Source: a virus
Taxonomy: Duplodnaviria; Caudoviricetes
Direction: 5' to 3' (one strand)
IMG/VR virus record: IMGVR_UViG_3300042914_000630
Span: 1 to 62,593 of that record
DNA: 62,593 nt
Part shown: positions 5,589-62,593 of the stretch, in pieces
How the letters are laid out: the number at the start of each line of letters is the position of its first letter
How positions within the stretch are numbered: the stretch's first letter is position 1
Notes under the pieces: generated by a model
Databases searched by the model: none
Seen by the model: the letters and a program-made list of their open reading frames with translations, nothing else
What the model was told of the DNA's origin: nothing
Position numbers and translations under genes: made by a program

Positions 5589-6318
5589 TGTTGCTGTGCT
5601 TGATGGAGATATCCTATGTTATCGTGCTGCTTTCTGGGCAGACCAAGAGGGTGTAGAATACCTAGAGGAAAGACTTGAGCATGATATCAAGGCTTGGACT
5701 CCAGCTGGTATGACCAAGACATACATTGCCATGTCTTGCAGCCGCAAGGATAATTACAGACGAGACTTCTGGGAATCCTATAAGGCTCACCGGGATGTCC
5801 GTAAGCAGACTCCAGATAGCATGGACTATGCTCTGGAGCTGATCCATCAGCATGACATCCTAACAGTACCTAGGCTGGAGGCTGATGATATCATGGGTAT
5901 TATGGCTTCCTCTGGCAAGGGTATTGCCGTGACAATCGACAAGGATCTTAGATCCGTACCCGGTTGGCACTGGAATCCAGACAAGGAACATACACCAGAT
6001 ATTGTGGATGAATATACCGCAGACCTGAATTTCCACAAGCAGTGGATTACCGGGGATACCACAGATAACATCCCCGGTATCTGGAAGTGGGGGCCAGCCA
6101 AGGCTGAGAAGTGGCTAAAGTATGTCCACCCCCGGAACTGGACCGCTGCTGTATTGGCGGCTTATGACCAAGCCAAGCCACAGGATGGCACTAAATATAA
6201 TTATGAGTATTGTTTATCTATGGCTAGGTGCGTTCGCATCCTACGGGATGGCGAGTACGACAAGAAGACCAAGCAGATTAAACTATACTGCCCAATAGTT
6301 GGGGCTACTGAAGAATAA
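5575..6318 (+). CDS. 5'-3' exonuclease (T7 gp6-like)
   Basis: LDGDIL, YKAHR, EADD, DKDL, GDTTDNIPG..G..KA. Confidence 0.95.
   Translation: MERPDVAVLDGDILCYRAAFWADQEGVEYLEERLEHDIKAWTPAGMTKTYIAMSCSRKDNYRRDFWESYKAHRDVRKQTPDSMDYALELIHQHDILTVPRLEADDIMGIMASSGKGIAVTIDKDLRSVPGWHWNPDKEHTPDIVDEYTADLNFHKQWITGDTTDNIPGIWKWGPAKAEKWLKYVHPRNWTAAVLAAYDQAKPQDGTKYNYEYCLSMARCVRILRDGEYDKKTKQIKLYCPIVGATEE
6292..6314 (+). promoter_or_regulatory. Candidate phage RNAP promoter (copy upstream of dUTPase and late genes)
   Basis: CCAATAGTTGGGGCTACTGAAGA; the core recurs at 46420, 50920 and 59580 on the same strand. Confidence 0.7.
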
Positions 6319-45600: not shown

Positions 45601-46338
45601 ATCTTGGACTTCGGAAGCCGTAGCACCGTCAAGTATCTTGCCAGCGGTATATTCCTATATGCTGCTTTGGATACCATTGTCGGTCTGTTTAAGGAATGGT
45701 TGGCTGGTCGTGAAACCGAGGATATGCTAAAGGAGTTGGAAGAACAGCCAGGTCAGTATGTCCTCCGTGGAGTGTCCAGAGTTCCCTTCCTAGGCATTGC
45801 CAATGGTCTGGTTGAATCTGGTGTCAGTACCATCTCCGGATTGACCGGAGGTACTTACAAGTACTATGGTATCCCCCTCATGCCAGCTGGTGCTGGAGCG
45901 GGTATGGGAGCCATTGAGACTGACTATAGGAACATGACAAAGATCGTAGAAGATCCCCTGTCAGCCAGATCCTTGAAAGCAGCTAGTGATCTATTCGGTG
46001 CTACCTCTTTGGTAAACCGTAGCCCCGTAGCTATCCCTGTCCGTTTGCTTGAGGATATGAATACCTTCAAGGAAATGGATGCCATTCAGAAGTATCTGGA
46101 TATGGTCCAAAGAGATCCATACCCATACTCCAAGAAGGCTGCTGGTAAGTTTAAACCAATTGAATTGGATTACGAGACTACCCCAAGGAACTACGCCTTG
46201 GAGCAGCAGATGGCTACCCAAGCTATGCAAAGAGAGATGGCTAGAAGACCTATGCCACAACCTGAGTCACCCAATACATTCCCAATGGTTAACGACCAGA
46301 AGGGTGTATCTGAAAGACTAGGAGAATTGTTAGATTAA
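36610..46338 (+). CDS. Giant multidomain internal virion protein (gp16-position)
   Basis: 3242 aa; Gly/Ala hydrophobic segments, HELGH zincin motif, HTH, K/P-rich linker. Confidence 0.8.
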   Translation: MLNFSEGFPIIPETPSAGPLRLNAYSPGQVLAAYDGDDLEFLDPSQLTNPLVYTRGDIKKVETYNQYYALTQALGALEGNLTGVSDGILGIANDPTKGAAWRQLIGKAPLTPIRYGDSELTQEAIDADLKSLNMMLEAEEGVDFSTLSYDQLSDRQKQIRDITAKVSYAEARNKAAEKLGFDWLDQVAAQDIFGITSILSDKELAGDTQDIEKLMNREDPNFDYKSWFGTKFSNEIVSQYLVENGITDDFISDSPNADHAMMRIMAQLNTSDIQRRMETYKPTNLDSFRLLRDGFIGGMINSPDTIPSVVAELGLVGISTLAGSLLAPGAGTVAGAAAGVAAAEGISTALGASSVFMRLKKAYDASTFAGRALRATAYTTETLYKLPLGMMPGYVANFGLIRGATASFTFGVVQGGLAEYARQKREIAFGAATLYANPNAMTDYNASLIATTALESGLLFGGVFGLGGGLLRSGIGAFQNRVKGVMIDPKTGFRNIADTRFTFENTPLGNTIDNIRGFVNRKERALIDAPVTEKAAVESVIENTEVTPEKLAADTEARVDRVETREATASPDAARATPEDAGTRRYEGETIPEYVARVGPNRAVRNIYEIVTEVARRTKAEGSERLIEASEQFDQMSIQDQMRVLFNTKKVLDDAKKAETDAVGLPKERERLYDELEKSRKAWFARLKKKLPKEAFKALKEELEENKKASGRKLPELLKEARDTAKPAAERKAASDEMAAKLLESISAAAASPEREAQIKAQVPPEVIDTVDAAIVEHKLTGTVSDATAEALKADIAGVKKQPKVGPVDRMLNAISKSIIAAKIDPNRVKKIKAVIRDPDAFVSLVDGDKDNATRFFDYLNELVINNMISSADRQLVLASVVHLNFSSKAFGINFKVESILDKAGNKQEDLIGSFRRSNNSLIMNLDFAGTTNDLKRRRAKALLHELGHAYFAHEASGDNYLSALRLYNKTIISSGIELMRYRPDTPDPLLNSGFLNQYHMQNAEEVFVQTFSQILFSEAEAVIGTWSPMQVSRTKFVLDKIATSVALAATLFDSSEHYAAAKEIIDSITDIDNKTKSFISMPTLARAYGNLHSMLDSVDDLAEYNKKLDAEFPDRDMKPYHLNKAELTLFKNSSKDPGFIIAMTIMKADQKSFVDSNGNFTRGINDLVKAYKEYKLAQLTSMQIKVAFLVGSNDYKVLKGLDKFDRLDFVKDELFSLYSREFVNGKSKRTILPATYEDLDALRNLDTMDYLDPTGSSVPYAVGFFGTTGDILIDAIESVVPTGKALASDTLSAEQVSALVGSLRVDDALTTNLIDQLRVYLDNIGLEELSEVVIEAQHLAYIQKLKNDGMLDIEEPSRSTPEWSNKQIAITSLGLMLKEKLSVDQIKVILKNNLSSSMYTYLINNHKIPKKLIGAVSKLLEEDGIVLNEDSKTWGIRTSKPATKVTAAAQEAAVSFESTALTKDNLVDVVSRIIKQSMRGNVTDNYFVDAAGSMITPKPDAKTVGKKAYAGNLELILSKIENGSLKTVKDLIGYIHTTAFNLKKADVAERESLETPDGVERTVVEGRPATAADRIVTTKKGIRKTILTEALDLNTGTNGRLLTAEETELVNVFTTAPTNKEAGVKLGVSESTAGRYRRTLIAKLVDVFEQSAISLDSGRDQIISGLNKHFDTVEKKVNAAKPNSEEAVIKKAKEKKPKPEADPVVSGARALQTAALAEKLRNKNPEAVIVPLPKDAEGVMYKVTDEVTGNEPEKVFRPSEQADAVMHGSPTASKEAVSFVPKKPLPMNYGTSTDLTSQPKKLESTLKSASRLGVDALVFKDGSVIPVNIEELPVIGKTEVKKEPDAEPEVTLTVENKKPVLSVISKERKPTEPKPKKENFPVKVEKKKLPRKPKATTAAPETTGPRIPMPPKKEVPVEKTPSDQVKTPEVDVVERKVNEDPKLLRQSGMDSNFLKTFIKKYWESKVEADGRNTMTPMFKKMWSHFVNVNQYIADANKRILGDDIMDKFWTAVDRIRAESLRLKVTEGPQGKKPLSYRQILEQAAKEVQVEGKPEFVIPLLPDEVKFVKENEAGDYRLSARSKKAKEIINAAGEDPVIPPPPSADAIVRAGEGQPEVPVVAEPEPPTPKEKLIGQGINQSEGGASRLLRLNNLVGWIFGGNQRENRTWFENLMNKGSNATQSATQLGNTLRSQVDMLSFVSRFFDDTKTQTGHLVGAGKTAFRTAMQLRAEEGRLMTRIFREYAKVHNLVPRLTSDVRSALDMYIYESLFKNRQPNKADLVALGIPAYQADAVAKQASLVIKSAQIANRNILELEAQTGRMSIVDENGNPVSPTTYAPVQLDHEGLARLDQNSRSALIKAMVAARTNRKLNDPMLDINTMIVMGWLDVAFDEDAKTLNVFATDRTIKYSEASNMFSNETLLKLFDAEIKKEGITGRKSDLLKLLRKSNPEKYFVLEFDDKYVIYRIPEKVTDLAPADKAKYMEAVKGNTAMYTEKWRKQLNNQNLIEREMKEILKYKTKQYPYNNPDDFNSVTKQPFFKIDPEGKTVLPIRGLTPEELLAAPETRAVLRTNLAESYFYFLKGRHFELAFQRELDRMFGQTGITILDVFDYVEKTGYENFEKIAELANWTPQELSTAQKGLADGLKRLREEYQFNADTLPYLNSEVGHSARIGLAAIRFKFSAGYGISAFTETLAELAKQSPEFYSIPKNIVNALRYVLADYRFSKQKLLESDIGDMTFVLENFRTDLANRFMGEIGYGSFRTDSRLGTKVSNSMLNIRDAQGGLETATRTFEEAGKWMQSIGSLQAVTNGTRALAKQRIQRMIWKHIQKGNIERLFDVLQESATADELAQLKKAAATDSRAEASLWKKFAGLARHQAKFGDANEAALFLKYGLTTKEQIVHLKWAMEKAGHRDGRINIFNLLDIHEDLRDNPVDGFSPDILESAISAYAHMVEDLIIKTSTSELKGLNKITSLDSRSALGRMWYALTSWVRSYQDNVILDFGSRSTVKYLASGIFLYAALDTIVGLFKEWLAGRETEDMLKELEEQPGQYVLRGVSRVPFLGIANGLVESGVSTISGLTGGTYKYYGIPLMPAGAGAGMGAIETDYRNMTKIVEDPLSARSLKAASDLFGATSLVNRSPVAIPVRLLEDMNTFKEMDAIQKYLDMVQRDPYPYSKKAAGKFKPIELDYETTPRNYALEQQMATQAMQREMARRPMPQPESPNTFPMVNDQKGVSERLGELLD

Positions 46339-46344
46339 ACCATA

Positions 46345-46382
46345 GGGGATACCTAGGGAAACCTAGGTATCCCCATTCTTTT
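46345..46382 (+). terminator. Terminator-like hairpin ending the late operon
   Basis: 13-bp perfect stem GGGGATACCTAGG-GAAA-CCTAGGTATCCCC then ATTCTTTT. Confidence 0.8.
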
Positions 46383-46419
46383 ATCGACATGTATTTGTAC
46401 AATCATGGTCACAGAGTGA

Positions 46420-46442
46420 CCAATAGTTGGGGCTACAGAAGA
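46420..46442 (+). promoter_or_regulatory. Candidate phage RNAP promoter (right-end copy)
   Basis: CCAATAGTTGGGGCTACAGAAGA; 22/23 match to the 6292 copy. Confidence 0.7.
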
Positions 46443-47010
46443 TATACCATAGGGATAACCTAGGTGTCTATGGATATCCCCTATAGGTTTTATTATTGTT
46501 TGTGTATAGTCTTAGCTAAGACCCCTAGGTTAACCTAAGTATATCCCTTGTTAACCACAGTTAATACATCAACAATAATAACAATAGAACAGAGCACTCC
46601 GGGGTTTAACCCCCCGGTTTGATCCCTTGTCGATTTCCTTGGATTCTAACGGGCCTAGGATGCCCGGAGAACCGCCGGGATAGCGAAGGTGGCCCTCGGG
46701 GTCATTCACAACATAAACCCCCTTATAGGGAATCCTAGGGCTGTATGTGTTTTAGAGCTGTCGATTTCCTTGGTAAGTCTTTTGGGACTCCCGTAAGTGT
46801 TTTACACAAAGGTTAAAGAAAGTTTAACTTTTAGGAAAATCGACTTAGGGGTAAAAAATTAGCGAAGGGGTATCCCCCGTAGGTACCTTACCCCTTCCCC
46901 CCGGCATCCCCCCTGCGAGTTACCGGACGCATGCCTGCGGTTCCGATAACCTAGCCGGGGCAGAGTCCGATAACCTAGGCTGCGCCCACGGGTGTTATCG
47001 GACGCTATCG
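46443..47010. repeat. Non-coding repeat/palindrome-rich region, probable physical genome ends
   Basis: TGTCGATTTCCTTGG x2, TCCGATAACCTAG x2, many CCTAGG; lies between last late gene and first early gene. Confidence 0.65.
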
Positions 47011-47128
47011 GCAAAGTTTGACCGATTCTAGCGTGGTATCCCTTTCCATTGTCCCCGCCGATGCGAGGACGGGTAAATGCGGGAGCCTGATGAATCCCCT
47101 GCGTTCTTTCTGACGGAGAATCTACACA

Positions 47129-47431
47129 ATGGTTGGAACAAATCTCATGGCGGTTGTTGAGGAGTCCATCGGGAATCTCAACGGAGGCCGCGCACAACTT
47201 GAGCCTACCCTCACGGAAGTCGTGCGCCATGCTGCGGAGTTCTTCGGGAATGATAACCGTAGCATTCGCATGGTGGTGAATACGGTACTGGAATCGTGCG
47301 GCCATGATCGGGAATCGCGTGATGAAATCATCGAGGCTCTTTATCGGAAGAACATCATGGTCAAGAAGACCTATGCGGCGAATCCGATGGCGAAACTCCG
47401 CAAGAAGATCGCGGAGCAGGCGGCGAAGTAA
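47129..47431 (+). CDS. First early protein, hypothetical
   Basis: GGAG SD; GC-rich codons. Confidence 0.7.
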   Translation: MVGTNLMAVVEESIGNLNGGRAQLEPTLTEVVRHAAEFFGNDNRSIRMVVNTVLESCGHDRESRDEIIEALYRKNIMVKKTYAANPMAKLRKKIAEQAAK

Positions 47432-47544
47432 TCCCCTGCGGATTGTGACGGGCTATCCTACGGGCTACCGTAGGGTATCCCCTCGGGGAATCCCACGGGG
47501 ATTCCTCAAGGGAATACCTTACCCCTAACCAACGGAGGTTTCGC

Positions 47545-47814
47545 ATGGACATTCTCTCGGAAGTTCGTCAAGTTTCGACGGTCATTCAAGCGGTTCATTT
47601 CGCCAAGCGACTAGCAAAGTTTGCGGATATTCCTGCAAAGACTGCGCTAGAGTTTGTGCGGGAGAAGCGTGGGATTGAAGTTACCCCGGAAGAATACCGG
47701 AAGTACGCGAACTATGTTCCGTCTTTCACGGTGAACACTCGGGCAGAATCTCGGGATATTCGGCAGGATTCTTCGGGACATCTTCCCCGATTCGACCGAA
47801 TCATGGCGCGGTGA
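47545..47814 (+). CDS. Early hypothetical protein
   Basis: GGAGG SD. Confidence 0.7.
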   Translation: MDILSEVRQVSTVIQAVHFAKRLAKFADIPAKTALEFVREKRGIEVTPEEYRKYANYVPSFTVNTRAESRDIRQDSSGHLPRFDRIMAR

Positions 47815-48092
47815 ATCCTTCGGGGATTCTTGGAATCCTACTTGTGCGCTTCCACAAGTATAAATAAGCGGAAGATATGGTGGTAATACCACTAGACATA
47901 TTATGAGGAAACTTGTAATATGTCATTGCTTGTGGGTCTAGTAACCCTCGGTGGAAGTTACCTCAACTTCCTGCAAAGTGTGTGTTCACTATTGGCACAC
48001 TTCAAGATGTAAATAGTTTGGGTATATCATAGGGAAACCTATGGTATATCTTTCCGTCTGATTTCTTTCTCTCTAACTTTAGGAGACAAACA

Positions 48093-49790
48093 ATGTTTGA
48101 GTTTCTCTTTCTGTTGGGTGGTGTTTCTTTCATGTATGCTTTGCTTTGGTGTATTCGTGAGAATGAAGATCTAAAGTAACTACCTTTCGTCCACCTTGGT
48201 AAGTCCCGAATAGGCTTCGGCTCTGTATTGCTTCGGCAATGCTAGGGATTACTTTCTTTCTTTAGGAGAACTAATGAATCCGTATGACATCTGTGTTGTC
48301 TTTGGTGATGACGAGGTTTGTTGTCATCAGGTTTGGGCAGCGAATGAATCCGAGGCTCATCGTTCCGTGATGGTGTTCTATAAGGACAGTACTGTTATCG
48401 GTGTTGTCTTTGGTTCCGATGGGCTAGGAGGATGACGATGGATGTTTGCTTCAAGTGTGGTAAGGAACATGAGGAAGCCTTTGCTAAAGTTCGTATTGAC
48501 TATCCCGATACGGAAGATTGGGAATCGTTTGAACTTTGTCCTGACTGTTTGATTGATCTCTTCAATAAGGAGAATGACTAATGCATCAGTACCATGTGGT
48601 TGTTGAGGGTGTTAGTGTCGCGGTCTATGACAACAAGTACAATGCCGCTCGTCATGCCATGCAGTATTCTCTTGGGCATGATGGTGCTAATGTTGTTGTG
48701 GAGTACCGCTATGTCTCAGCCTGAAGTGTGGTACAACTTTACCTTTTGGCAGAATAATAGCGGAGGATACTTCATTGGTCCTTCGGAGTTTACTGTTACT
48801 GCAAAGACAGAGAAGGATGCCTTTGCTATTCTAAAGTCACAACCTTGGTATTCGGAGAATCATTGCGAGTGTTGTGGTGTTAGGTGGTTTGATCTTGCTC
48901 ATTTTCAGGAGAGAATCTAATGAATATTGGAAGAGCATATAATGCTAGTAATGGATTCGTGACTGTCGTTGTTCTCAATGATGGTGAAACCTTTAGTGAT
49001 ATTCATAACTGCAGTATCTGTATTGTTCCTATTGAGCAATACGAGAGTGTTATGGCTAGTGGTGGAGATGCAAAGGACTTTATTCCTGTTTCAGAGATTG
49101 GACTCAACAATATTACCGTTCCAAAGGAGTATCTGTAATGGCATATAAGCACACGGTTTACATTCCGCAGCATGACAATGATCATTCGGAGTCGTCTTAT
49201 GTTCTCGCTCCTACCATCAAGTCAACTTTGGTTGAAGCCTTTGTCGTGAACTTTGGTGGGGCTACTGTTACCGAGGGATATGGTTACTATAAGATGAGCG
49301 ATGGGTTTACCGTGGAGGATAAGGTCTGGATTGTTCAGACTATCGCTGATGTACCCTCTATTGATGGTATCCTTGCCTTTCACATTACCAATATCAAGAA
49401 TGTTCTGAAGCAGGAATCTGTTCTTTACACTACGGAGAATCTCAACAATGTCACCTTCGTTTCCTGATGATTACTGCCCTGATGTGGACGCTATCTATGA
49501 GGAGCGTCATCTGAATCCTGCCTATATGGAGGAACTAAACTCTTCCCGTTACGAGGATTTCTATGGTCCCTATGATGGTGGATATGATGATGATTGTCCG
49601 CCGGATGATTGGGAGGATGAGGATGAAGACTATGAAGAGGAGGATGACCGATGAAGGTTATCGTTGTCTTTGACTTTCCCGATGTTGTGGATGTAGACTC
49701 TGATCATGCCGACAATGTGATTGATGAACTGACGATTGATCTCAAGCGTCTTGAGAATACGGTAGGTTATACTTGGTATATTGAGGAGGC
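48093..49790 (+). other. Cluster of small early ORFs (e.g. 48093-48179, 48711-48920, 48920-49138, 49138-49467, 49448-49654)
   Basis: Chain of short SD-led, overlapping ORFs; several acidic or CxxC-containing. Confidence 0.65.
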
Positions 49791-49795
49791 ATACA

Positions 49796-50665
49796 ATGAC
49801 TAGCGTTGGAGAACTAAAGTCTGTTGTTCGTCCTGTTACTGGTAAGGCTCCGTCATTTGAAGGTGAGAGGTTCAAGGCTAAGTCTTATGTGTTTGATGCG
49901 GAGCTGAATGAGTGGGTTAGTTTCTATTGGATTCTTACTGATAGTGCTAACCGTGATGGCTGTGGTAATCAATGTGATTGGTATGACAATAATGCCGAGG
50001 TCGATAATGAGGAACACTTTGGCATCAAGTTGACCGATCAGAATCTTGGCACTAGCAATGCAAAGGCTGCTGCTCTTGCAATGTATCAGCGACAGAAGTT
50101 GGCGGCAGACAATGGACTTGCTCCTCCTGTGCATGGTATGTGTTGCGTGAAGTTCTATCGCAAGGATTCTAGTAAGATTGAAACTGCATGGGGCTATCTT
50201 TCTAGCCGTGCTGTTACTGACTTTGATCCTGTAGAGCATCCTGATTCTCTTGCTGCTTTCGAGGAGTACCTTGAAGAATGCAGGAATGCTTGGGATAAGT
50301 ATGAGGAACTGGAATCTTATCTTGAGTCCTGTGATTGGATTGATAGTTATAATCAGCGTCGAATGCTGAGTGATGCTAGGGATTGTGTTGGGTATCCACA
50401 TCCTGATGATGTTTCATTTAGTGAGTGGTGCTATGATAACGATATGGCTGTCCATGATCTTGATGGATTGAAGGAGGAACTCAGGGATCTTGATGCTGGT
50501 GGTTTGCAGCATGACTTTTATCCTCTTGGTCATAAGTATCCCCGTGGTACTTGGATGGGATCTGATCTGCATGAGCAGAATGTAGCGTTGTGGCAGGGTA
50601 AGATTGTGTGCATTGACTTTGGACACCATTGCCTAGGAAAGAGGTATCGACATGAGCATGCATAA
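49796..50665 (+). CDS. Protein kinase-like early protein (gp0.7 analogue)
   Basis: GIKL, LAPPV, DLH..N, IDFG kinase-fold motifs; GAGGAGG SD. Confidence 0.75.
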   Translation: MTSVGELKSVVRPVTGKAPSFEGERFKAKSYVFDAELNEWVSFYWILTDSANRDGCGNQCDWYDNNAEVDNEEHFGIKLTDQNLGTSNAKAAALAMYQRQKLAADNGLAPPVHGMCCVKFYRKDSSKIETAWGYLSSRAVTDFDPVEHPDSLAAFEEYLEECRNAWDKYEELESYLESCDWIDSYNQRRMLSDARDCVGYPHPDDVSFSEWCYDNDMAVHDLDGLKEELRDLDAGGLQHDFYPLGHKYPRGTWMGSDLHEQNVALWQGKIVCIDFGHHCLGKRYRHEHA

Positions 50666-52518
50666 TAAGTATATCGTAAAGCAGGAGGACTGCTGGGATG
50701 GAACATGGTTTGCAGTGTATGTTAATGGACAATATGTATCGGCATTCCGAGAGAGTGGTGATGCCCATTTCTATGGACTGTGGTGTGCAAATCCAAATCC
50801 TTCCAACAAGAATGAACGACCGCAAAGTGTATGTGATTCAGGTAATCACTCCGAGTAATCCCCGGTGGATTACCGTAGGGGTATCCGAAACTCCTGCACT
50901 TGCACTAACCGCCCTCTGCCGAATGGTTGGGGCTACTGATACAGTACTACAGGGAGACTCGTAAATGAACAGAACTAATAGACACAATACAACAATCCAT
51001 ACTTACTATGGAGAAGTTGATGTAGAGTTTGATGTTATTTGGACTATGGATAGTAGCAACAACTGGTGTTTTACTGATGTAGATATCGTGGATCTTCCTT
51101 ATGATTCTACTGTTGAGTATGATACTGTTCGTAGTGATGTAAGGAACTTTGCACAAACTTATTGCGATCCCTTTGGAGGTATCAATGAAGACTCTGATTA
51201 TTCAGATTGAGGTCGATGACTCTGCTCAGCAACAGTTACTTTATGATGTACTACAGGAGATGATTGAGGAGCGACAACTTAGAGGATACTTTACGCTGGT
51301 CGATGATGGTGAACCCGTGGATGATCTTCCTGATTACATGGCGTTTGAAATGAATAAGTTGATTCCCGAGATTGTTAAACTGGAGAAGTGCCGTGCATCA
51401 TACAAGCACAAGCATTGTGAGTGATAACATTGAGTTCATTGGTGAAGCATGGGGTAACATGCATAACTGGATGGACAATAAGGGTAAGAGAAAGAAAGCA
51501 TTGCAAATGCTGAACGAGTTTCAGCAACAGGTTAATAACGAGTATTGGATTACTGATGACGAGGAACTGTTTCTCGCCACTATTTCGCACACTATTGAAA
51601 GTTCTTGCTAATGTCTACTACTGATACTAATACCACTGCTATGACTCAGGCTATCGAAGTTCTCGCTGAGGCTATTGCTTCCGAGGTTATGAAGAACCTT
51701 CAGTCTACGATTGAGCGGAAGGTTGAGCGCGCTATGAGCGATTACTTGGATGGTTCGGACTTCACCTATCAGCTTGAGGATGTCATCAAGGATAAGATGG
51801 AGTCGCTCGTTGATGATTATGTTTCGGATGTTTCCCTCTCTATTCGGGTGGACTGATGCAGGAAGATAACACCATTAACTATTGGCGAGATTGGATGGAT
51901 GCATTCAATGTAGATCACAGTCGATATACCGAAAAGGAATTTATCGAATGGGTGAATGACATGGAATGCTTTGTCGGTGATGCTTTGGATTCTCTCATGC
52001 CTGATGAGTGGATTCCAGAGAACGATGATGAGGATAATGATTGGGAAGATCTTCCATCAGAGGATGCTGAAGATGATTGATTATGTTGTAATCCTTTTCA
52101 TCATTGCACCATATGTTAGTACACTGCTACTTAATCATCTGATATCTAAGGATATTATGCAGCTCTATCAGGCTATTACAAAACTGCAGGATGAGGTCAA
52201 GGTTCTAAGTACTCATGCTGCATCTATGGATTCCAAGATTAACTATTGGAATCCCTACTCAAAGAAAGGTGATAAGTGATTTACGGAATTCTAACTAGCG
52301 TCTGTCTTGTTGCTCCTATTATGTATCTTCTTGTGTGTAACATCAGGAATGATAAGCGTATTGCCTACATGAATAGCGAGCTTACTCAGATTAAGAACAA
52401 GCAGGAAGCTTTGAATTGTAAGATTGAGTTTGTTAAGGGCAACGATAAGGCTGAGCTTTGCTATAAGATTCTTAAGGATCAATGCAAGCGCATGGGTACT
52501 TGCGGAATGTTCAAGTAA
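50652..52518 (+). other. Cluster of small early ORFs (50652-50858, 50965-51210, 51610-51856, 51856-52080, 52276-52518 and others)
   Basis: ORF track with overlapping starts and stops. Confidence 0.6.
50920..50942 (+). promoter_or_regulatory. Candidate phage RNAP promoter
   Basis: CGAATGGTTGGGGCTACTGATAC upstream of ORF 50965. Confidence 0.7.
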
Positions 52519-52524
52519 TAACTA

Positions 52525-52600
52525 GGAAGGGTGGCTGAAAAGTAGTTAGAGCGCATGCCTTATAAGCGTGAATATGTGGGTGCAACTCCCGCCCCTTCCA
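52525..52600 (+). tRNA. tRNA-Ile(UAU)
   Basis: Acceptor GGAAGGG/CCCTTCC; anticodon arm CATGC-CTTATAA-GCGTG; T arm GTGGG-TGCAACT-CCCGC (non-canonical loops). Confidence 0.78.
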
Positions 52601-52605
52601 CATTT

Positions 52606-52679
52606 GTCCCTGTAGCTCAACTGGATAGAGCAATGACCTTCTAAGTCATAGGCTACAGGTTCGATCCCTGTCAGGGATG
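52606..52679 (+). tRNA. tRNA-Arg(UCU)
   Basis: GTCCCTG/CAGGGAT; ATGAC-CTTCTAA-GTCAT; GGTTCGAT. Confidence 0.92.
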
Positions 52680-52697
52680 TTTACCAGAAAGGTTTGT

Positions 52698-52991
52698 ATG
52701 AGTAATAAGAATTGGGATATGCTGCGCCACGATATGGATGTATCCTGTCTACCTTCTTCCGAGTATTTGATTCATCTGTTTCAAACTTTGGAAGCACTTA
52801 AGAATAGGTGTGATGTTCTGGAGCGAGAGGCTCGCCTCAACAAGACTAAGTATTGTGATTTGATTGATGCTCTTGAGGCTAAGTTCAAGCCAGCAATGAA
52901 GTCACATATGTATCTCATGGATAATCAAGTTGAAGTTTATAGATATGTTGCTGCTCTAACTACCAAGAAAACTGGTAAGAAAAAGAAGTAA
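52698..52991 (+). CDS. Hypothetical protein within tRNA cluster
   Basis: AAAGG SD before MSNKNW. Confidence 0.6.
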   Translation: MSNKNWDMLRHDMDVSCLPSSEYLIHLFQTLEALKNRCDVLEREARLNKTKYCDLIDALEAKFKPAMKSHMYLMDNQVEVYRYVAALTTKKTGKKKK

Positions 52992-53008
52992 GTTTTTCTT
53001 ACAAGTAT

Positions 53009-53051
53009 TCCAAGTATACAGCGGGCTTTGACCCCGCCAAGGTACTTGGAT
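53009..53051 (+). ncRNA. Armless tRNA-Gln(UUG)-like element
   Basis: TCCAAGTA/TACTTGGA stem enclosing GCGGG-CTTTGAC-CCCGC; no D or T arm. Confidence 0.55.
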
Positions 53052-53055
53052 ATAT

Positions 53056-53128
53056 GGCACTGTAGCCCAAAGGCAGAGGCAATCGACTCAAAATCGACCA
53101 AGTGTGGGTTCGACTCCCACCAGTGCTA
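53056..53128 (+). tRNA. tRNA-Leu(CAA), short variable loop
   Basis: GGCACTG/CAGTGCT; TCGA-CTCAAAA-TCGA; GGTTCGAC. Confidence 0.85.
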
Positions 53129-53132
53129 CTTT

Positions 53133-53205
53133 GGGTTGGTAGCTCAATAGGTAGAGCAGTTGACTTTTAATCAATTGGTTGAGAGTTCAAGTCTCTCCCG
53201 ACCCA
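53133..53205 (+). tRNA. tRNA-Lys(UUU)
   Basis: GGGTTGG/CCGACCC; GTTGA-CTTTTAA-TCAAT; GTTCAAG. Confidence 0.93.
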
Positions 53206-53224
53206 TTCCATAGAAAGGATTACA

Positions 53225-53569
53225 ATGGGACTTGATTTGTTCGCGCATGGTGTTGATCCTAAGAAGTTTGAACGCATTCCTCCGCTGCTGTGTGGCAGCA
53301 TGTTTAGTGATGGACAGTCCAGCATTCGCGGTAAAGTGTATGCTGGGTTCATCAATGAGATCTGTGATGTCGATCTTTATCAAGAGAAACTCAAGCCCGA
53401 TGAACTTCAGCGTGTCATCACTAGGCTTCAAATGTATCTGATGGATGTCGCTGATAATCCGCGAAGTAATCCCGAGTATGATGACTTCAGTTACGAAGAG
53501 GTTGCTGCCCTGTTGATGTGGTTTACAATCATAAAGGAAAACAATGGAACAGTCATCGGATGGTGGTAA
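53225..53569 (+). CDS. Hypothetical protein (MGLD...FRGK-like family)
   Basis: AAGGA SD; ORF track. Confidence 0.7.
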   Translation: MGLDLFAHGVDPKKFERIPPLLCGSMFSDGQSSIRGKVYAGFINEICDVDLYQEKLKPDELQRVITRLQMYLMDVADNPRSNPEYDDFSYEEVAALLMWFTIIKENNGTVIGWW

Positions 53570-53828
53570 GTACGAAGAGTTTGTAGGTAGTATGGTGATC
53601 ATCTATTGGGATGATATTGCTGGGTTTGCTGATGCATGGATGGACTTCAAGGAGATCTATGAGATGCGTCCTCACAAGTGCTACACTATTGGTATCTTGT
53701 TTGAAGTAACCGAAGAATATATTACTATCGCATCCACTTGCGATGACTTGCGAACTATCGTATCGGATATCAACTGTATTCCGATTGGCTGCATTACTTC
53801 TATTAATAAGCTTAAGGAAATTAAATGA
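53544..53828 (+). CDS. Hypothetical phage protein (W.D...C.T.G...IP..C pattern)
   Basis: ORF track. Confidence 0.65.
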   Translation: MEQSSDGGKYEEFVGSMVIIYWDDIAGFADAWMDFKEIYEMRPHKCYTIGILFEVTEEYITIASTCDDLRTIVSDINCIPIGCITSINKLKEIK

Positions 53829-54136
53829 TTAAAGCAAGTAAAACTAAGACTGTTGGAACTAGGCCGGATGATTATACGATTGTGTCATTGATGGTGAATG
53901 AATGTAATATGGGTTGGGGTGATAAGTATGATTTTATTACCGTAAATATCCTAAAGAATAACAACGGCACAATGACTGTTATTCAGCAGCATCTTTCTCT
54001 TGAAGATGTTGATGAGCTTGCAAGCACACTTTATCAGATTAAATGGGACTATGAGCGAAGACAGAGAGAAAAGAAGGAAGCGACTGCAGCAGAAGCAGAA
54101 GCACAAGGAATTGGAACCGAAAAAGCCGAGGCTTAA
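53825..54136 (+). CDS. Hypothetical protein
   Basis: AAGGA SD. Confidence 0.65.
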   Translation: MIKASKTKTVGTRPDDYTIVSLMVNECNMGWGDKYDFITVNILKNNNGTMTVIQQHLSLEDVDELASTLYQIKWDYERRQREKKEATAAEAEAQGIGTEKAEA

Positions 54137-54220
54137 TCCATATAGTCGAAGCAAGACACGCGACAATGATCGTCATGGTCGCTTTGAACAAGATGACGAA
54201 ACCCTTTATTAAGGAAACTA

Positions 54221-55216
54221 ATGGCTCACAATATTACGGATACTGATGGCGCGGTCTTTCATAAGGTTGCTGCTTGGCACGGACTTGGTTTGATTGTTGA
54301 GGATGCAATGTCTCCGACCGAGGCTATGCAGATCGCTGGTCTTGATTGGGAAGTGAATAAGGTTGGTCCTGTGTTTGCAGGTAATCCCCTCACCAATGCT
54401 CCGTCCTCTGATGACTATGTTGCCATCGTTCGCAGCGACAACAATAAGATCCTGTCTATTCAGTCGCCTGACTATCAGCCTATTCAGAACTCCGAAGTGT
54501 TTGAGATGGCATACAATCTTGGTGCTGATATCAAGGTTGAGTCTGCGCTCTCCATGAATGGCGGTCGCCGCTTGGTTGTTCTTTGCAAGACTGATACTAT
54601 GGATGGAGTCAACAGCAACGATCCGATTGAGAAGTACATGGCTTTCATCAACAGCCATGATGGTACTCTTGCTCATTCTGCTATGCCTACCAGTGTGCGT
54701 ATCGTCTGCCAGAATACTTTGAGTATGGCTATGGCATCCGGTGCTAAGAAGGCTTTCCGTATCGTCCACTCTGGCGATATGAAGAAGAAGCAGGAGGCTA
54801 TGGCTGAGGCTCTCAAGTTCTACACTAAGACGGGCAAGTTGTTTGAGGAGAAGGTGTCTACCCTTGTCCGCAAGGAACTTACCAAGGCTGACATTCAGAA
54901 GTTCTGGATTGATGTCTGGGGTATCCTTGAGACTCCTGTTGATGCTAACCCGCAGACCGAGGCTGAATATACTAACTATCTCAAGGCTACTACCACTGTT
55001 GCTAAGTGGGCGGATATCTTTGACAAGGAGATGCGTGAGTTGAATTGCGGTGCTAACCTGTGGCTTGCTTCCAATGCTGTCACTAAGGAACTTCAGCACC
55101 GTATTCCTGCCCGTGGTAAGAAGCCTACCTTTGAGTCGAATGCCTACAGCAATCTCATGGGTAAGAATCAGGACTCCACGATTGATGTTATGCGTTACGC
55201 TTTGACCCTTGCTTAA
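54221..55216 (+). CDS. DUF932 family phage/plasmid protein
   Basis: AWHGLG, AGLDW.V, Y.PIQN, NSHDGT, RIVCQNTL, NLW...NAVT. Confidence 0.9.
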   Translation: MAHNITDTDGAVFHKVAAWHGLGLIVEDAMSPTEAMQIAGLDWEVNKVGPVFAGNPLTNAPSSDDYVAIVRSDNNKILSIQSPDYQPIQNSEVFEMAYNLGADIKVESALSMNGGRRLVVLCKTDTMDGVNSNDPIEKYMAFINSHDGTLAHSAMPTSVRIVCQNTLSMAMASGAKKAFRIVHSGDMKKKQEAMAEALKFYTKTGKLFEEKVSTLVRKELTKADIQKFWIDVWGILETPVDANPQTEAEYTNYLKATTTVAKWADIFDKEMRELNCGANLWLASNAVTKELQHRIPARGKKPTFESNAYSNLMGKNQDSTIDVMRYALTLA

Positions 55217-55224
55217 GGAAACAT

Positions 55225-55440
55225 ATGGCTACTAAGAAGAAGACTACTATTAACTATCGTAAGATTGCCGAAGAGTTTGCTATTGAGGTTGATGATGTGT
55301 TGTTTACTCTCTATGAGACAAAGGATATGACGCTTAATGGAGAGCTTACTCATAAGGATCTAATCAACGATCTCTTTAATTTGTGCAGCAAGCTTGAGAA
55401 TGCTATGGCTAAGTATGAAGAGAGTACTGACGAGGATTAA
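55225..55440 (+). CDS. Hypothetical protein
   Basis: AAGGA SD. Confidence 0.65.
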   Translation: MATKKKTTINYRKIAEEFAIEVDDVLFTLYETKDMTLNGELTHKDLINDLFNLCSKLENAMAKYEESTDED

Positions 55441-55899
55441 ATGAATATCTTTGTACTTGACAACAGCCCAGAGTTTGCAGCAAAGTATCAATGTGACAAG
55501 CATGTTGTGAAGATGGTTCTTGAAACGGCTCAGCTTCTTTGCTCAGCCCATGAGACTGCGCCTTATAAGCGTACTCATTATAATCATCCGTGTGCTATCT
55601 GGACTAGATCAAGTCTTAGTAATTATGATTGGCTTGTGCGGCATGGACTCGCACTTGCAAGGGAGTATACTTTCAGGTACAATAAGATACACAAGAGCAC
55701 CGAGGTCATTGAATGGGCATGGCAGAATAAGCCTACCATTCTTGACCTTGGACTCTTGCCCTTTGCTCAAGCCATGCCTGATCAGTATAAAGATCCCGAT
55801 CCTGTCGTAGCGTACCGTAACTATTACATGAAGGAGAAAGCAAGACTTGCCACTTGGAAGTTCTGCGATACTCCGCATTGGTTTGAGGTTACACCATGA
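55441..55899 (+). CDS. Pyrimidine-dimer DNA glycosylase (DenV-like) family protein
   Basis: MNIF.LD, DKHVVKMVLE.AQLL, H.NHPC..W, QAMPD.Y, AYR.YY. Confidence 0.82.
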   Translation: MNIFVLDNSPEFAAKYQCDKHVVKMVLETAQLLCSAHETAPYKRTHYNHPCAIWTRSSLSNYDWLVRHGLALAREYTFRYNKIHKSTEVIEWAWQNKPTILDLGLLPFAQAMPDQYKDPDPVVAYRNYYMKEKARLATWKFCDTPHWFEVTP

Positions 55900-56034
55900 A
55901 GCAGAATAGAAACTACTATAGCGAAGAACATGGTTATGTATGCGACTGTCGCCCTTCAACAGAACCTTATGAGCAACTCTGTTGGTGCTGTCAGCAATAT
56001 GTCGATAACCTAAAGTCATACGAGGAGGACATTG

Positions 56035-58506
56035 ATGACGAGACTATGGAATCAGCTGACGAACGAAGAGAAGGAGAAGCGGAATAATCTTCAAGTAGTT
56101 CTTGAAGAAGACATGCTCTGTCTTTCCGAGCGTAAGTATTGGGAGGCTTACAATGCTAATCCTGATGAGGGAATTCCAGAGCAGACTTTGATTGATGCAT
56201 GTGTGATCCATCTGACACCTTTCTATCAGCAGTGGATTGATACTATCTCAAGCAATAGAAAGACTCCTGAGTGGGCTGTTCCTTTGTTTGCCGTTGGTGC
56301 TGCTAAGATGGCAGACATTACCGTTCGTGCCTTGATTCTTGAATGGTTCAACTCTTCTTTCTGGGAGCGTAAGTATGAGGGAGATCTGTTCCCTCTGCCT
56401 ACGGCTCAGCATATTGCCCATGTCATTTCCGAGATGGTCATTGAGATCGTAGCCTATCAGCAAGCCAAGAAACAATTCCGTGAGGATTGGGCAAAGCAGT
56501 CACACTATCAGAAGAAGTGGACGCCCAAGCGTTGCAAGGCTTTTGCCTACAAGATGGGTACGCTTAACAAGAAGAACTTTAATAGGAAGCAGCGTGAGGA
56601 TTTCGGTCATCATATGCTGCGTATCGCTGAGATGTCTGAGATTATTCAGCTCAAGAACATTCGCAAGCATACGGGTAGGCGTTGGTCTGAGCGTGTGGTT
56701 GTTACCTTTACTGATGACATTCTCAAAGAGTTGCACAAGCGACACAAGGATGTCATTGCCAAGGCAGCTTTGCTCTATCGACCAATGATCGTTCCTCCTG
56801 TTGAGCATACGCTTACCAGCAGCGGTGGTAATGTACTGCCGTATGTTCGTAAGCCTGTGGTTCAGAAGTTCAAGGATGTCATGTGGGATGAGAAGGTTCA
56901 CCAAAAAGGTAGTACACCATCACAGACCGTGATCGACGGTCTTAATGTGATGATGCATACCGAGTGGACTATCAACGAGCGTGTGCTTGAGGTAATGGAA
57001 ACACTCTTCAAGAACAATACACGCGATGCCAATCTTCCTGCCTATGACTTCTCTGCCTTTGACTTTGCTGAGCCTTATCCTGCCAATGGAACTAAGGAAG
57101 AGCAAGCCAAGTGGTGTGCTCAGAAGGAAGAGGCATACAGCAATTGGTACAAGGAGGAACAGCTCCGTGGTCGTATGCTTGTCAGGCTTCAGCTTGCCAA
57201 GTCTATGATCCCGCAGAAGTTCTTCTATCATATCTTTACATGTGACTTCCGTGGTCGTGCTAACTCTGCCTGTGATCTTCTGTCGCCACAAGCTTCAGAC
57301 TTTGATCGTGGGTTGATCATGTTTGCAGAGCCAAGGAAGCAGACAACTAATGGTTTGTTCTGGCTTAAGGTACATGTCGCTAATCTGTTTGATCAGGACA
57401 AAGTTCCCTTTGCAGACAGAGCCAAGTGGGTTGATGACAACATGGCTATGCTGCGGCAGATCAATGACAATCCATACGATACTAGAAAGCTATGGGTATC
57501 AGATAAAAAGAAAAAGAACCCTAGCTTTCAGCGTCTTGCTGCAGTGTTTGATCTATGTCGTACTGATGGTATGACTCAGGTTGCCGTGCAGATGGATGGT
57601 TCCTGCAATGGTGTTCAGCATTGGGCTGCGCTTATGCGTGACCCCGTGCTTGCCAAGAAGGTGAATCTGATTCAGACAGAAAAGCCGCAGGATCTATATC
57701 AGTTTGTTGCAGATAGTATGACCAACAAAATGACTGAGGTTAAGGACGAAGACAGTAATAAGGGGCGGTGGGCTACCAAGTTTCTTGAGTATTGGGAAGG
57801 GGATATTGATAGGTCTGTTGTGAAGAGAGCGGTTATGACTGATCCATATGGAGTTACCTTCTATGGTATCCGCCGATACTGCAAGACCGAAGGACATCTT
57901 GATTGGGTAGGCAAAGACCAGATTGCTGGTGCAGTCATGGAGCTTGCCACCTTTATTGATCAAGCCCTCAAGGGTACATTGATCGAACCCAACAAGGGTA
58001 AGGCTTGGCTCAAGGTCGTAGCTGATATGTTCTCTGAGGTCGGTAAGAATGTTGAGTGGACTACGCCGTGTGGCTTTAAGGTTGTCCACCAGTACTATGA
58101 GATACTAACTAGACGATCAGTAGCCAAACTGTTCGACATGAAGGAGCTGCATTTCGGTGCTCCAGATAAGGAAACAATAGATGGAAGCTCAGTTAATCTG
58201 GCTATCTCTCCAAATTACATACACTCCTTGGATGCGAGTCATATGTGGTCTACCATCAAGCGAATGAAGGAAGCTGGTATTACACAATACAGCATGATCC
58301 ATGATTCGTATGGCTGTCCTGCACCTGATGTCAATCTGATGCGAGTCTATACTAACGAGGAGTTCCACAGAATGCACAGCACTAACTTGCTGGCTGATAT
58401 GCGGACTGAACTTATGAATAACATTGACATGGAGCTGCCGGATGTTCCCGAAGTCGGAGTATTCGACATGGATAATGTGCTTGATGCCGAGTACTTCTTC
58501 CAATGA
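56035..58506 (+). CDS. Single-subunit DNA-dependent RNA polymerase (T7 gp1-like)
   Basis: PMIVPP, DFRGR, DGSCNGVQH, R..VKR.VMT.PYG, PNYIHSLDA, IHDSYG; GAGGAGG SD. Confidence 0.97.
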   Translation: MTRLWNQLTNEEKEKRNNLQVVLEEDMLCLSERKYWEAYNANPDEGIPEQTLIDACVIHLTPFYQQWIDTISSNRKTPEWAVPLFAVGAAKMADITVRALILEWFNSSFWERKYEGDLFPLPTAQHIAHVISEMVIEIVAYQQAKKQFREDWAKQSHYQKKWTPKRCKAFAYKMGTLNKKNFNRKQREDFGHHMLRIAEMSEIIQLKNIRKHTGRRWSERVVVTFTDDILKELHKRHKDVIAKAALLYRPMIVPPVEHTLTSSGGNVLPYVRKPVVQKFKDVMWDEKVHQKGSTPSQTVIDGLNVMMHTEWTINERVLEVMETLFKNNTRDANLPAYDFSAFDFAEPYPANGTKEEQAKWCAQKEEAYSNWYKEEQLRGRMLVRLQLAKSMIPQKFFYHIFTCDFRGRANSACDLLSPQASDFDRGLIMFAEPRKQTTNGLFWLKVHVANLFDQDKVPFADRAKWVDDNMAMLRQINDNPYDTRKLWVSDKKKKNPSFQRLAAVFDLCRTDGMTQVAVQMDGSCNGVQHWAALMRDPVLAKKVNLIQTEKPQDLYQFVADSMTNKMTEVKDEDSNKGRWATKFLEYWEGDIDRSVVKRAVMTDPYGVTFYGIRRYCKTEGHLDWVGKDQIAGAVMELATFIDQALKGTLIEPNKGKAWLKVVADMFSEVGKNVEWTTPCGFKVVHQYYEILTRRSVAKLFDMKELHFGAPDKETIDGSSVNLAISPNYIHSLDASHMWSTIKRMKEAGITQYSMIHDSYGCPAPDVNLMRVYTNEEFHRMHSTNLLADMRTELMNNIDMELPDVPEVGVFDMDNVLDAEYFFQ

Positions 58507-59573: not shown

Positions 59574-59579
59574 GTAATC

Positions 59580-59602
59580 CCTATGGTTGGGGCTACAGAT
59601 AT
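59580..59602 (+). promoter_or_regulatory. Candidate phage RNAP promoter (replication cluster)
   Basis: CCTATGGTTGGGGCTACAGATAT in intergenic gap. Confidence 0.72.
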
Positions 59603-62126: not shown

Positions 62127-62295
62127 CGATCCTCTGGCTCAAGCTGTTCAAGAGTTAGAGTGGGTCACTCACGAAAGAGATCAGGCAAGAAGAGAACTGA
62201 TTGCCTATGATGCAATACACTTTAAGCTTTCAGTAGTCGAAGCTGCTAAAGCAAGAGGTTGGGGTTATCTAATTACAAAGGATAAATATGTCTAA
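62119..62295 (+). CDS. Hypothetical protein (ERDQARR...ARGW motif)
   Basis: Hand translation from GTG 62119; fills the gap between genes. Confidence 0.55.
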   Translation: MSDDPLAQAVQELEWVTHERDQARRELIAYDAIHFKLSVVEAAKARGWGYLITKDKYV

Positions 62296-62593
62296 GAATA
62301 AACCGTGGCTAAAAGCTAAGAAAAGAGATCATACTACTGGTGCTGGCAAGGGCGATAAGTATCGTCCGGTTGACCGAGAGCAATATGAAAAAAATTATGA
62401 TGCTATCTTTAACTCTGCAAAGAAGGTAAATGAAAAGCACAAGAAGACCTTAGAGAAACTGAATGATGAAGACAAAGACATTAAGCGAACTTGAGGAGAT
62501 GGTCTATGATCTTGCAGCCCTTAGCTACAAGGTTGGACGCCTTGAGACAGATGGTACATCGACTCAGGCAAAGTATGATAAACTGGTTGAACA
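62278..62593. repeat. Right copy of terminal overlap
   Basis: Matches 1-280 but is 36 nt longer. Confidence 0.95.
62288..62494 (+). CDS. Small hypothetical protein; longer allele of 11-175
   Basis: ORF track 68 aa. Confidence 0.6.
   Translation: MSKNKPWLKAKKRDHTTGAGKGDKYRPVDREQYEKNYDAIFNSAKKVNEKHKKTLEKLNDEDKDIKRT

Follow-up and report, generated by a model that had tools for sequence, protein, structure and literature searches.

The armless mitochondrial transfer RNAs (tRNAs) of enoplean nematodes, which are about 42-45 nucleotides (nt) long, possess a defined acceptor end and CCA, and are charged and used together with adapted mitochondrial factors. In Escherichia coli, the thrS operator is an anticodon-arm mimic that binds a synthetase. 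Small RNAs that are not tRNAs also occur in phages, including the stable RNAs C and D (species 1 and 2) of the T4 tRNA cluster, which are co-transcribed and processed with the tRNAs, and RNA decoys such as the pseudo-ToxI antitoxin mimics and the RNA anti-CRISPRs derived from solitary repeats. Here we describe a hairpin at positions 53009-53051 of the uncultured virus record IMGVR_UViG_3300042914_000630 from IMG/VR (Caudoviricetes), whose 62,593 bases were analysed as a whole and are referred to as the window. The hairpin (hereafter, the element) lies in a row of tRNA genes and carries an anticodon arm of the tRNA-Gln(UUG) type. Judged by its sequence and by those of its relatives, it looks like a maintained, tRNA-Gln-derived anticodon-arm mimic that is neither a working tRNA nor a decayed gene.

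Several of these systems share features with the element. Like the armless mitochondrial tRNAs, it combines an anticodon arm and a terminal stem through short connectors that stand in for the D and T arms, and it is of similar size; by contrast, its terminal stem ranges from 4 to 14 base pairs (bp) with no conserved first pair, and it is encoded by a bacteriophage. The T4 stable RNAs C and D have over twice the length of the element and are not known to be copies of an anticodon arm, and it is by this description that we set them apart. Pseudo-ToxI and the RNA anti-CRISPRs are phage small RNAs that copy a host RNA to occupy a defence protein, as the element putatively does, although what they copy is an antitoxin RNA or a CRISPR repeat and not the anticodon arm of a tRNA. 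Complete phage tRNAs have been described in conflicts with bacterial defence, including a T5 tRNA-Lys used against PARIS (PMC11464382) and a phage tRNA-Tyr used against retron effectors (PMC11555353), and a hypothesis on anticodon-loop variants has been put forward for phage tRNAs (PMC10264068). Common to these accounts and to our locus are the phage tRNA cluster, the central place of the anticodon loop and a plausible conflict over tRNAs; however, the tRNAs of those accounts are presented as complete, chargeable replacements, whereas the element, without a D or T arm, could only compete or bind. Among eukaryotic viruses, the tRNA-like element of human immunodeficiency virus 1 (HIV-1) is reported to bind lysyl-tRNA synthetase (PMC5113203), and domain V of the poliovirus internal ribosome entry site (IRES) to bind glycyl-tRNA synthetase (PMC3384309). 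As in these mimics and the thrS operator, a hairpin loop of the element copies a specific anticodon loop, presumably for a tRNA-binding protein, but the former act in cis within mRNAs or genomes, whereas the element is free-standing and adjoins no cognate gene. Overall, the element resembles the armless mitochondrial tRNAs in shape and would work like the synthetase-binding mimics and the phage RNA decoys; judged by what defines their members, it was assigned to none of these three groups, and it is kin to the tRNA-mimicking RNAs. In open-access papers and bioRxiv (supplements excluded), no account was found of a phage tRNA cluster encoding an RNA that consists of an anticodon arm alone, nor of a phage decoy that copies such an arm.

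In the window, the outer stem of the element runs from T53009-A53050 to A53016-T53043 as eight Watson-Crick pairs, topped by U53017.G53042, and is joined through an internal loop of 3/4 nt (ACA opposite CAAG) to an inner stem of 5 bp, in which GCGGG (53021-53025) pairs with CCCGC (53033-53037). The terminal loop, CTTTGAC (53026-53032), has 7 nt and holds TTG at 53028-53030. RNAfold returned exactly this structure for positions 53009-53050 at -20.3 kcal/mol, compared with a mean of -9.05 (standard deviation 2.36) for shuffled sequences (z -4.77), and none of 200 shuffles was as stable. The fold was also kept when 151 nt of context were folded along with it. The 5-bp stem with a 7-nt loop CU-UUG-AC noted in the first-pass annotation of the window is thus borne out by both sequence and RNAfold. 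The same annotation saw an acceptor-like stem beginning U1-A, a description that fits the window (8 bp plus U.G) but does not extend to the relatives, in which the stem has 4-14 bp and begins with G.U, G-C or C-G; U-A is confined to the window type, and the base after the stem varies.

The element was found at the same place in 31 contigs, the window included, which belong to one clade of uncultured T7-like freshwater phages and hold 18 distinct versions of it. Relatives (loci with L numbers below) were collected through a 331-amino-acid (aa) DUF932 neighbour protein, which gave 19 viral loci, and through alignment of a 114-aa protein encoded just downstream of tRNA-Lys, which gave 29 viral and 80 metagenome loci. 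A covariance model built from eight element versions was then used with cmsearch and detected the element in 18 of 42 sources (the window and 17 viral loci) and in 12 of the 80 metagenome loci at E <= 1e-12. A pattern scan added one further viral contig, and an extra AT-rich metagenome match (E 0.65) was discounted as weak. All 16 loci of the DUF932 search that reach upstream carry the element; the other three start too late, and the contig of one of these carries it according to the pattern scan. Similarly, it is present in 12 of 12 metagenome loci that reach upstream and share at least 58% identity in the 114-aa protein, four others being cut short. Below about 45% identity, the element occurs only in two lineages, L022/L045 and L028/L040. 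The more distant relatives have similar tRNAs (Lys, Ile, Arg and Leu, plus Glu(UUC)), and in L057, L062 and L063 the Arg-Leu spacer contains a promoter-like site and a small open reading frame (ORF), with no hairpin. Close cultured relatives were not found: in 50,697 phage records, blastn with 52500-53260 as query hit nothing but tRNAs, no matched place covering 80% of the query, and tblastn with the 331-aa neighbour remained below 60% identity throughout.

ARAGORN called no full-length tRNA-Gln at the position of the element in any relative locus, viral or metagenomic, and the single tRNA-Gln among these loci lies elsewhere, in the distant L099, with anticodon ctg. The comparison of the locus in relatives that the first-pass annotation had proposed shows the armless form conserved at the site, with no full tRNA-Gln there. 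The 29-nt degenerate core of the element was found in only one other viral contig, and a looser pattern matched 14 contigs, of which 13 are family members and the last, L276, is a chance match with neither hairpin nor tRNA. A generic descriptor of an "armless arm", applied to 747 kb of phage DNA, gave 23 matches; 12 of them are this family, read on either strand, and the other 11 are without tRNA context. There is one copy per genome, and no second copy in the 62.6-kb window.

Compensatory changes across lineages, by which conserved structured RNAs are recognized, are abundant in this family. In the model-fitted alignment of the 18 versions, 92.1% of cells pair, compared to 29-51% when the 3' partners are slid, and eight of 12 pairs changed on both sides (37 cells), including four of the five pairs of the inner stem. 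None of 500 shuffles reached the observed value on four of five covariation measures, while 133 of 500 reached it on the fifth, "further pair types". A plain MAFFT alignment of eight versions gave 90.4% paired, again with eight of 12 pairs changed on both sides. The inner stems seen are GCGGG/CCCGC, GATGG/CCATC, ATAGG/CCTAT, GTAGG/CCTAC and GCGG(A)/(C)CCGC. The outer stems vary in sequence as well as in length: the shortest, of 4 bp, is that of L022, which has an extra 3-bp mini-hairpin 3' of the arm, and the longest, found in the L029 group, has 14 bp interrupted by bulges. The U.G pair atop the outer stem is present in 14 of 18 versions and would be A.C on the other strand; therefore, the plus-strand RNA is the folded, selected species, and the plus strand of the element is also the direction of all genes. 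In RNA-library contigs of a close relative, A53013>T is accompanied by T53046>A, a change on both sides of one pair.

While the stems change, the loops do not. All 18 versions share the ACA that precedes the arm, C32, U34, U35, the C that follows the arm and the G ahead of the 3' strand, and U33, G36 and A37 are each kept in 16. The exceptions are C at position 33 in L085 and L040, and U at position 37 in L022/L045; in addition, the loop of L028 is A-CUUUCAA-C, giving UUC, and that of L040 is CCUUUAA, giving UUU. Conservation of the loop had been named beforehand as a point on which the first-pass reading could fail, and UUG proved to be kept in 16 of 18 versions even though four of five inner-stem pairs changed on both sides. 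The further claim that the locus does not look like random decay agrees with the z of -4.77 for the fold and with the compensatory changes in the 18 versions. The element is very probably a real, selected structured RNA.

The arm itself is identical to that of genuine tRNA genes. Its 17-mer was found in 18 viral contigs, and in 15 of these it is the anticodon arm of a tRNA-Gln(ttg) gene called by ARAGORN, which upholds the earlier assignment of the arm to the tRNA-Gln(UUG) type; the C-U-UUG-A-C loop on a 5-bp stem that marks this type is present in the element. In 11 of the 15 genuine phage tRNA-Gln genes, ACA stands directly 5' of the arm, the same as in the element. It is worth noting that, among the 120 matches listed from bacterial genomes, 113 lie outside any tRNA call, mostly in GC-rich coding DNA, five are tRNA-Gln calls (one doubtful) and two are opposite-strand tRNA-Thr calls. 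The 17-mer in bacterial genomes is thus mostly a chance match and uninformative on the host, and we rejected an inference of the host from it. On the 3' side of the arm, the element reads CAAGGTAC. In one genuine phage tRNA-Gln type, a variable loop occurs together with a T arm that opens with AAGGT and an acceptor strand that opens with AC; this likeness, short as it is, would fit a history in which the D arm and most of the T arm were lost. We consider it probable that the element is derived from a tRNA-Gln. The same arm is found inside a full tRNA-Gln(UUG) in the uncultured phages L002, L004, L011-L013, L017 and L018, where this tRNA adjoins tRNA-Lys(UUU) and tRNA-Glu(UUC) and, in some, also tRNA-Leu(UAA/CAA). 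These phages are a possible model for the ancestral row.

The element fills a tRNA slot in a tightly packed row, because the 57-nt Arg-Leu spacer of the L029 group equals the hairpin plus 3 nt on each side; in this group, 1-4 nt separate the end of tRNA-Arg from the element. The 3' end of the model match extends a few nt beyond the stem, and in 26 of 30 loci the following tRNA begins -1 to +2 nt from that end; this abutting tRNA is Leu in 25 loci and Lys in L072. The loci without an abutting tRNA are L028/L040, where 50 nt with another hairpin intervene, and L022/L045, where 18 nt intervene. Four RNA-library runs were examined for cover of this region. Contigs from X19 and X24, metatranscriptome libraries of two studies that share year and habitat type, span the element of a relative with about 94% identity; their ends and strand are not readable and DNA carry-over is possible. 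X20 and X23 gave no cover over the element.

Stems that covary around unchanging loops mark an RNA that is recognized by its loops, and a mimic is therefore favoured. We tentatively propose that the element acts as a mimic read by a protein that binds anticodon loops, a role that is well within reach of the evidence though somewhat short of probable. In this proposal, only the arm of tRNA-Gln(UUG) would have been kept, set on a lower stem of variable length through the fixed internal loop. Since the element occupies the tRNA slot between Arg and Leu, maturation of its neighbours, that is, 3' trimming of tRNA-Arg and RNase P cleavage at the 5' end of tRNA-Leu, would release the hairpin as an RNA of about 45-57 nt, with the 5' maturation of tRNA-Leu setting its 3' end. 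This RNA would not decode; rather, a protein that reads U34-U35 anticodon loops (of Gln and, by extension, of Glu and Lys) would bind its loop together with the internal loop. The most likely partner would be a defence protein directed at tRNAs, such as a host anticodon-loop nuclease, with the element serving as its competitor or trap; the next most likely would be a synthetase or a wobble-U modification enzyme. In a published example of such a nuclease, activated LshCas13a is described as preferring tRNA-Lys(UUU), Glu(UUC), Gln(UUG) and Thr(UGU) and as also cleaving small loops like anticodon stem-loops (PMC11042736), and isolated anticodon stem-loops are described as a substrate of a Cas13b (PMC13692257). 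The loops of the family, UUG, UUC (L028) and UUU (L040), are three of the four anticodons given there as preferred by LshCas13a (PMC11042736). A role specifically as an anti-nuclease decoy, which was among the readings of the first-pass annotation, is plausible but in our estimate unlikely, and the same estimate applies to the reading that the free-standing anticodon-arm RNA of this clade traps or outcompetes a host immune nuclease aimed at the U34-U35 loops of Gln, Glu and Lys tRNAs.

A number of points weigh against a mimic. The only expression data, the X19 and X24 contigs, show no ends and may stem from DNA carry-over. The family is confined to one narrow clade, and distant relatives have a small ORF with a promoter-like site in its place. 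The alignment of 18 versions was fitted to the covariance model and hence leans toward the structure. The closing pair of the arm is A.C in nine of 18 versions (the L023 type, with a 9-nt loop) and the outer stem is variable, so that tRNA-like geometry is not strict. The flanking ORFs gave nothing in Pfam or PHROGs, with no tRNA-related protein family among the neighbours. Finally, a stoichiometric decoy would need to compete with a very large pool of tRNAs.

The main rival is a processing or stability hairpin, in which a remnant of tRNA-Gln was kept as a structured spacer that guides or protects transcript cuts, or as the 5' leader of tRNA-Leu, with no reader for the loop. Early transcripts of T7 are cut by RNase III at irregular hairpins between early genes, and the phage studied here is T7-like, with the element lying among small ORFs upstream of the polymerase gene. 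Like the T7 hairpins, the element is irregular, has an internal loop and is placed between genes of a T7-like early region; moreover, it stands directly before a tRNA, in the window it also follows an ORF, and its outer stem is free to vary in length. Such a role would account for where the element lies and how it is built, but leaves its fixed anticodon-type loop unaccounted for: a processing hairpin needs none, yet C32, U34 and U35 are kept in 18 of 18 versions and UUG in 16 of 18 while the stems change. RNase III sites of this kind span about two turns of double-stranded RNA with an internal loop; the element has 14 pairs in the window, approximately 18 and 19 in L023 and the L029 group, and approximately 9 in L022, a spread that would suit a double-strand nuclease of the ruler type poorly. 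The element is a single copy in 62.6 kb where sites would be expected between several early genes. We hold this explanation to be doubtful, although it deserves the most weight among the alternatives. Alternatively, the element may be a partner of tRNA-Leu, its loop UUUGA kissing UCAAA of tRNA-Leu through five pairs and thereby shielding the tRNA or aiding its folding or maturation. The loops are indeed complementary (CUUUGAC in the element, CUCAAAA in tRNA-Leu), and UUG (followed by A) is a Leu codon read by tRNA-Leu(CAA/UAA) as well as a Gln anticodon. All 30 element loci carry tRNA-Leu(CAA or UAA), which is the next tRNA in 29; with UAA, G36 can still pair as G.U, and the L040 loop CCUUUAA is complementary to that of its own tRNA-Leu(UAA) with a shift of one base. 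However, position 36 of the element does not covary with position 34 of tRNA-Leu, G occurring with both C34 and U34; L028 (UUC) does not fit, tRNA-Lys intervenes in L072, and distant relatives keep tRNA-Leu(UAA) without the element. U-rich and A-rich loops also pair easily by chance, and the full identity of the arm with tRNA-Gln arms would be left unexplained. We therefore judge a tRNA-Leu partner to be improbable, as these points stand against it.

The remaining alternatives differ in what would read the element. A mimic directed at glutaminyl-tRNA synthetase (GlnRS), a non-discriminating glutamyl-tRNA synthetase or the wobble-U enzymes, which would modulate charging or modification during infection, draws on the same loop conservation as the anticodon-arm mimic favoured above. 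In bacteria, thiolation of the wobble U is common to three tRNAs, those for Gln, Glu and Lys, whose anticodons UUG, UUC and UUU are the loop variants of the family. On the other hand, recognition by a synthetase usually requires parts of the tRNA beyond the anticodon arm, no such protein was found among the nearby ORFs in Pfam or PHROGs, and a benefit to the phage is not evident; the mimics of HIV-1 (PMC5113203) and poliovirus (PMC3384309) nevertheless offer precedents for the binding of synthetases. Weighing these together, we rate this alternative as rather unlikely. That the element is a functional minimal (armless) tRNA-Gln, charged and taking part in translation, is highly improbable. The anticodon arm is intact, the outer stem of the window starts with U-A, and ARAGORN in its metazoan-mitochondrial mode reports an "mtRNA-Gln(ttg)" over the element; that call, however, is 66 nt long with a mismatched acceptor, overlaps tRNA-Leu by 5 nt and is dropped under -mtx. 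In bacterial mode, also at a lowered threshold, ARAGORN called the four neighbouring tRNAs and not the element, and none of the 17 matches of an Rfam 15 cmscan (E <= 10) over 51500-54500 overlaps 53009-53051. A canonical bacterial tRNA (RF00005) was rejected on these grounds and because only 3-4 nt stand where the D and T arms belong. The tRNA-Gln acceptor identity set consists of a U1-A72 first pair and the discriminator, and the element does not follow it, as its first pair and the following base vary; an armless tRNA of the mitochondrial type was set aside because the stem of 4-14 bp gives no fixed acceptor length. CCA is not encoded, and the bacterial EF-Tu, ribosome and GlnRS require an L-shape. 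The suggestion of a "minimal tRNA that scanners miss" in the first-pass annotation is therefore not supported. Equally hard to credit is a signal at the level of DNA, whether promoter, terminator, origin or attachment site. The loop holds TTGAC, with TATAT 17 nt later in the window, and the minus strand has a weak promoter-like match at 53040-53013. However, a consensus scan gave no plus-strand sigma-70 promoter at the site, the region has 15 promoter-like matches against 18.7 expected, and the spacing of the -35 and -10 sequences is lost in relatives because the stem length changes; a repeated 21-nt motif elsewhere in the genome is a better candidate for a promoter of the phage's own. An intrinsic terminator was rejected because the hairpin is followed by TATATGGCAC, with no T-run, and the site is not among 13 terminator-like sites in 46300-56100. 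The G.U pairs and compensatory changes point instead to pairing in a plus-strand RNA. A kink-turn reading of the internal loop was also dropped, judged by eye.

The record is estimated to be 93% complete (CheckV), thus complete or nearly so, and has the gene set of a T7-like podovirus, with a single-subunit RNA polymerase (PF00940, E 5e-85) and genes for a primase/helicase, DNA polymerase, ribonucleotide reductase, portal, scaffold, capsid, tail proteins and terminase. Four tRNA genes called by ARAGORN form the row (Table 1), set among small ORFs upstream of the polymerase gene, and a 104-aa ORF (52677-52991) followed by the element lies between tRNA-Arg and tRNA-Leu. CAA accounts for 40% of Gln codons, and codon use decides nothing about the element.

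Table 1. Parts of the element and neighbouring features in the tRNA row of the window.
Feature	Position	Strand	Basis and remarks
tRNA-Ile(UAU)	52525-52601	+	ARAGORN; upstream member of the row
tRNA-Arg(UCU)	52605-52680	+	ARAGORN; upstream member of the row
Small hairpin GTAAG-TTTTT-CTTAC	52988-53002	+	Folded; overlaps the stop codon of ORF 52677-52991
Outer (lower) stem, 5' strand, TCCAAGTAT	53009-53017	+	Pairs with 53042-53050 (RNAfold)
Internal loop, 5' side, ACA	53018-53020	+	Invariant in 18/18 distinct versions
Anticodon arm, tRNA-Gln(UUG)-type, GCGGG/CTTTGAC/CCCGC	53021-53037	+	17-mer identical to that of phage tRNA-Gln genes
Internal loop, 3' side, CAAG	53038-53041	+	C38 and final G in 18/18; AA in 16/18
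Outer stem, 3' strand, GTACTTGGA	53042-53050	+	RNAfold; covariation
Spacer TATAT, 5 nt, before tRNA-Leu	53051-53055	+	Sequence, ARAGORN
tRNA-Leu(CAA)	53056-53129	+	ARAGORN, Rfam; 74 nt, short variable loop; anticodon complementary to the UUG of the element
tRNA-Lys(UUU)	53132-53206	+	ARAGORN, Rfam; last in the row

The 104-aa ORF inside the row has no Pfam or PHROG match. A gap between tRNA-Arg and the element that is long enough for it (316-322 nt) was seen only in the window and L070-L072, and the other relatives have a 27-nt hairpin spacer in this place. In the RNA-library contigs of a relative, 209 nt of the ORF are swapped for 203 other letters. A longer form of the small hairpin at 52988-53002 precedes the element in relatives of the L023/L024 type and is absent from the L029 group. 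The tRNA-Leu(CAA or UAA) of the clade (L023-L085 and the window) is only 73-75 nt long, a 5-nt variable loop replacing the long extra arm of bacterial tRNA-Leu, and has G1.U72 as its first pair, plus A73; in L072, tRNA-Leu(caa) has 85 nt and is located after tRNA-Lys. In L022 (1259-1334) and also in L045, a tRNA-like sequence with no ARAGORN call stands in place of tRNA-Arg(UCU). It has a 7-bp acceptor, an anticodon arm with the loop CUUCUAA and a T arm, is without a proper D arm, and has about 22 extra bases between the anticodon and T arms.

Elsewhere in the window, the 21-nt motif occurs on the plus strand in four copies that are 86-100% alike (6291-6311, 46419-46439, 50919-50939 and 59579-59599). 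Three of them extend to about 39 nt, and one lies 1.6 kb upstream of the tRNA row. The motif is a candidate promoter of the phage's own single-subunit RNA polymerase. An ORF of 3242 aa (36610-46338) is directly followed by the strongest terminator-like site in the scanned region (46300-56100), a perfect 13-bp hairpin at 46345-46374 that has a GAAA loop and ends in a T-rich tail. The ends of the record, 1-280 and 62278-62593, repeat each other with 94-95% identity, not 100%, and may be a terminal repeat assembled from a mixed population.

Cleavage of tRNA is a common end-point of bacterial immunity, and the known phage answers to it are repair of tRNAs or the supply of replacement tRNAs. If the element is a mimic, it would be a cheaper answer, in which the phage keeps only the part of the tRNA that the nucleases read; if it does trap or outcompete such a nuclease, it would be the first case of a tRNA decoy made of RNA, adding a third phage answer to tRNA repair and tRNA replacement. 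The element would also serve as a 45-nt reagent to fish its reader from freshwater bacteria. Whatever its function, the element shows that phage tRNA rows hold a class of selected small RNAs, derived from tRNAs, that tRNA scanners leave unannotated, and that selection can maintain a tRNA gene reduced to a single arm.

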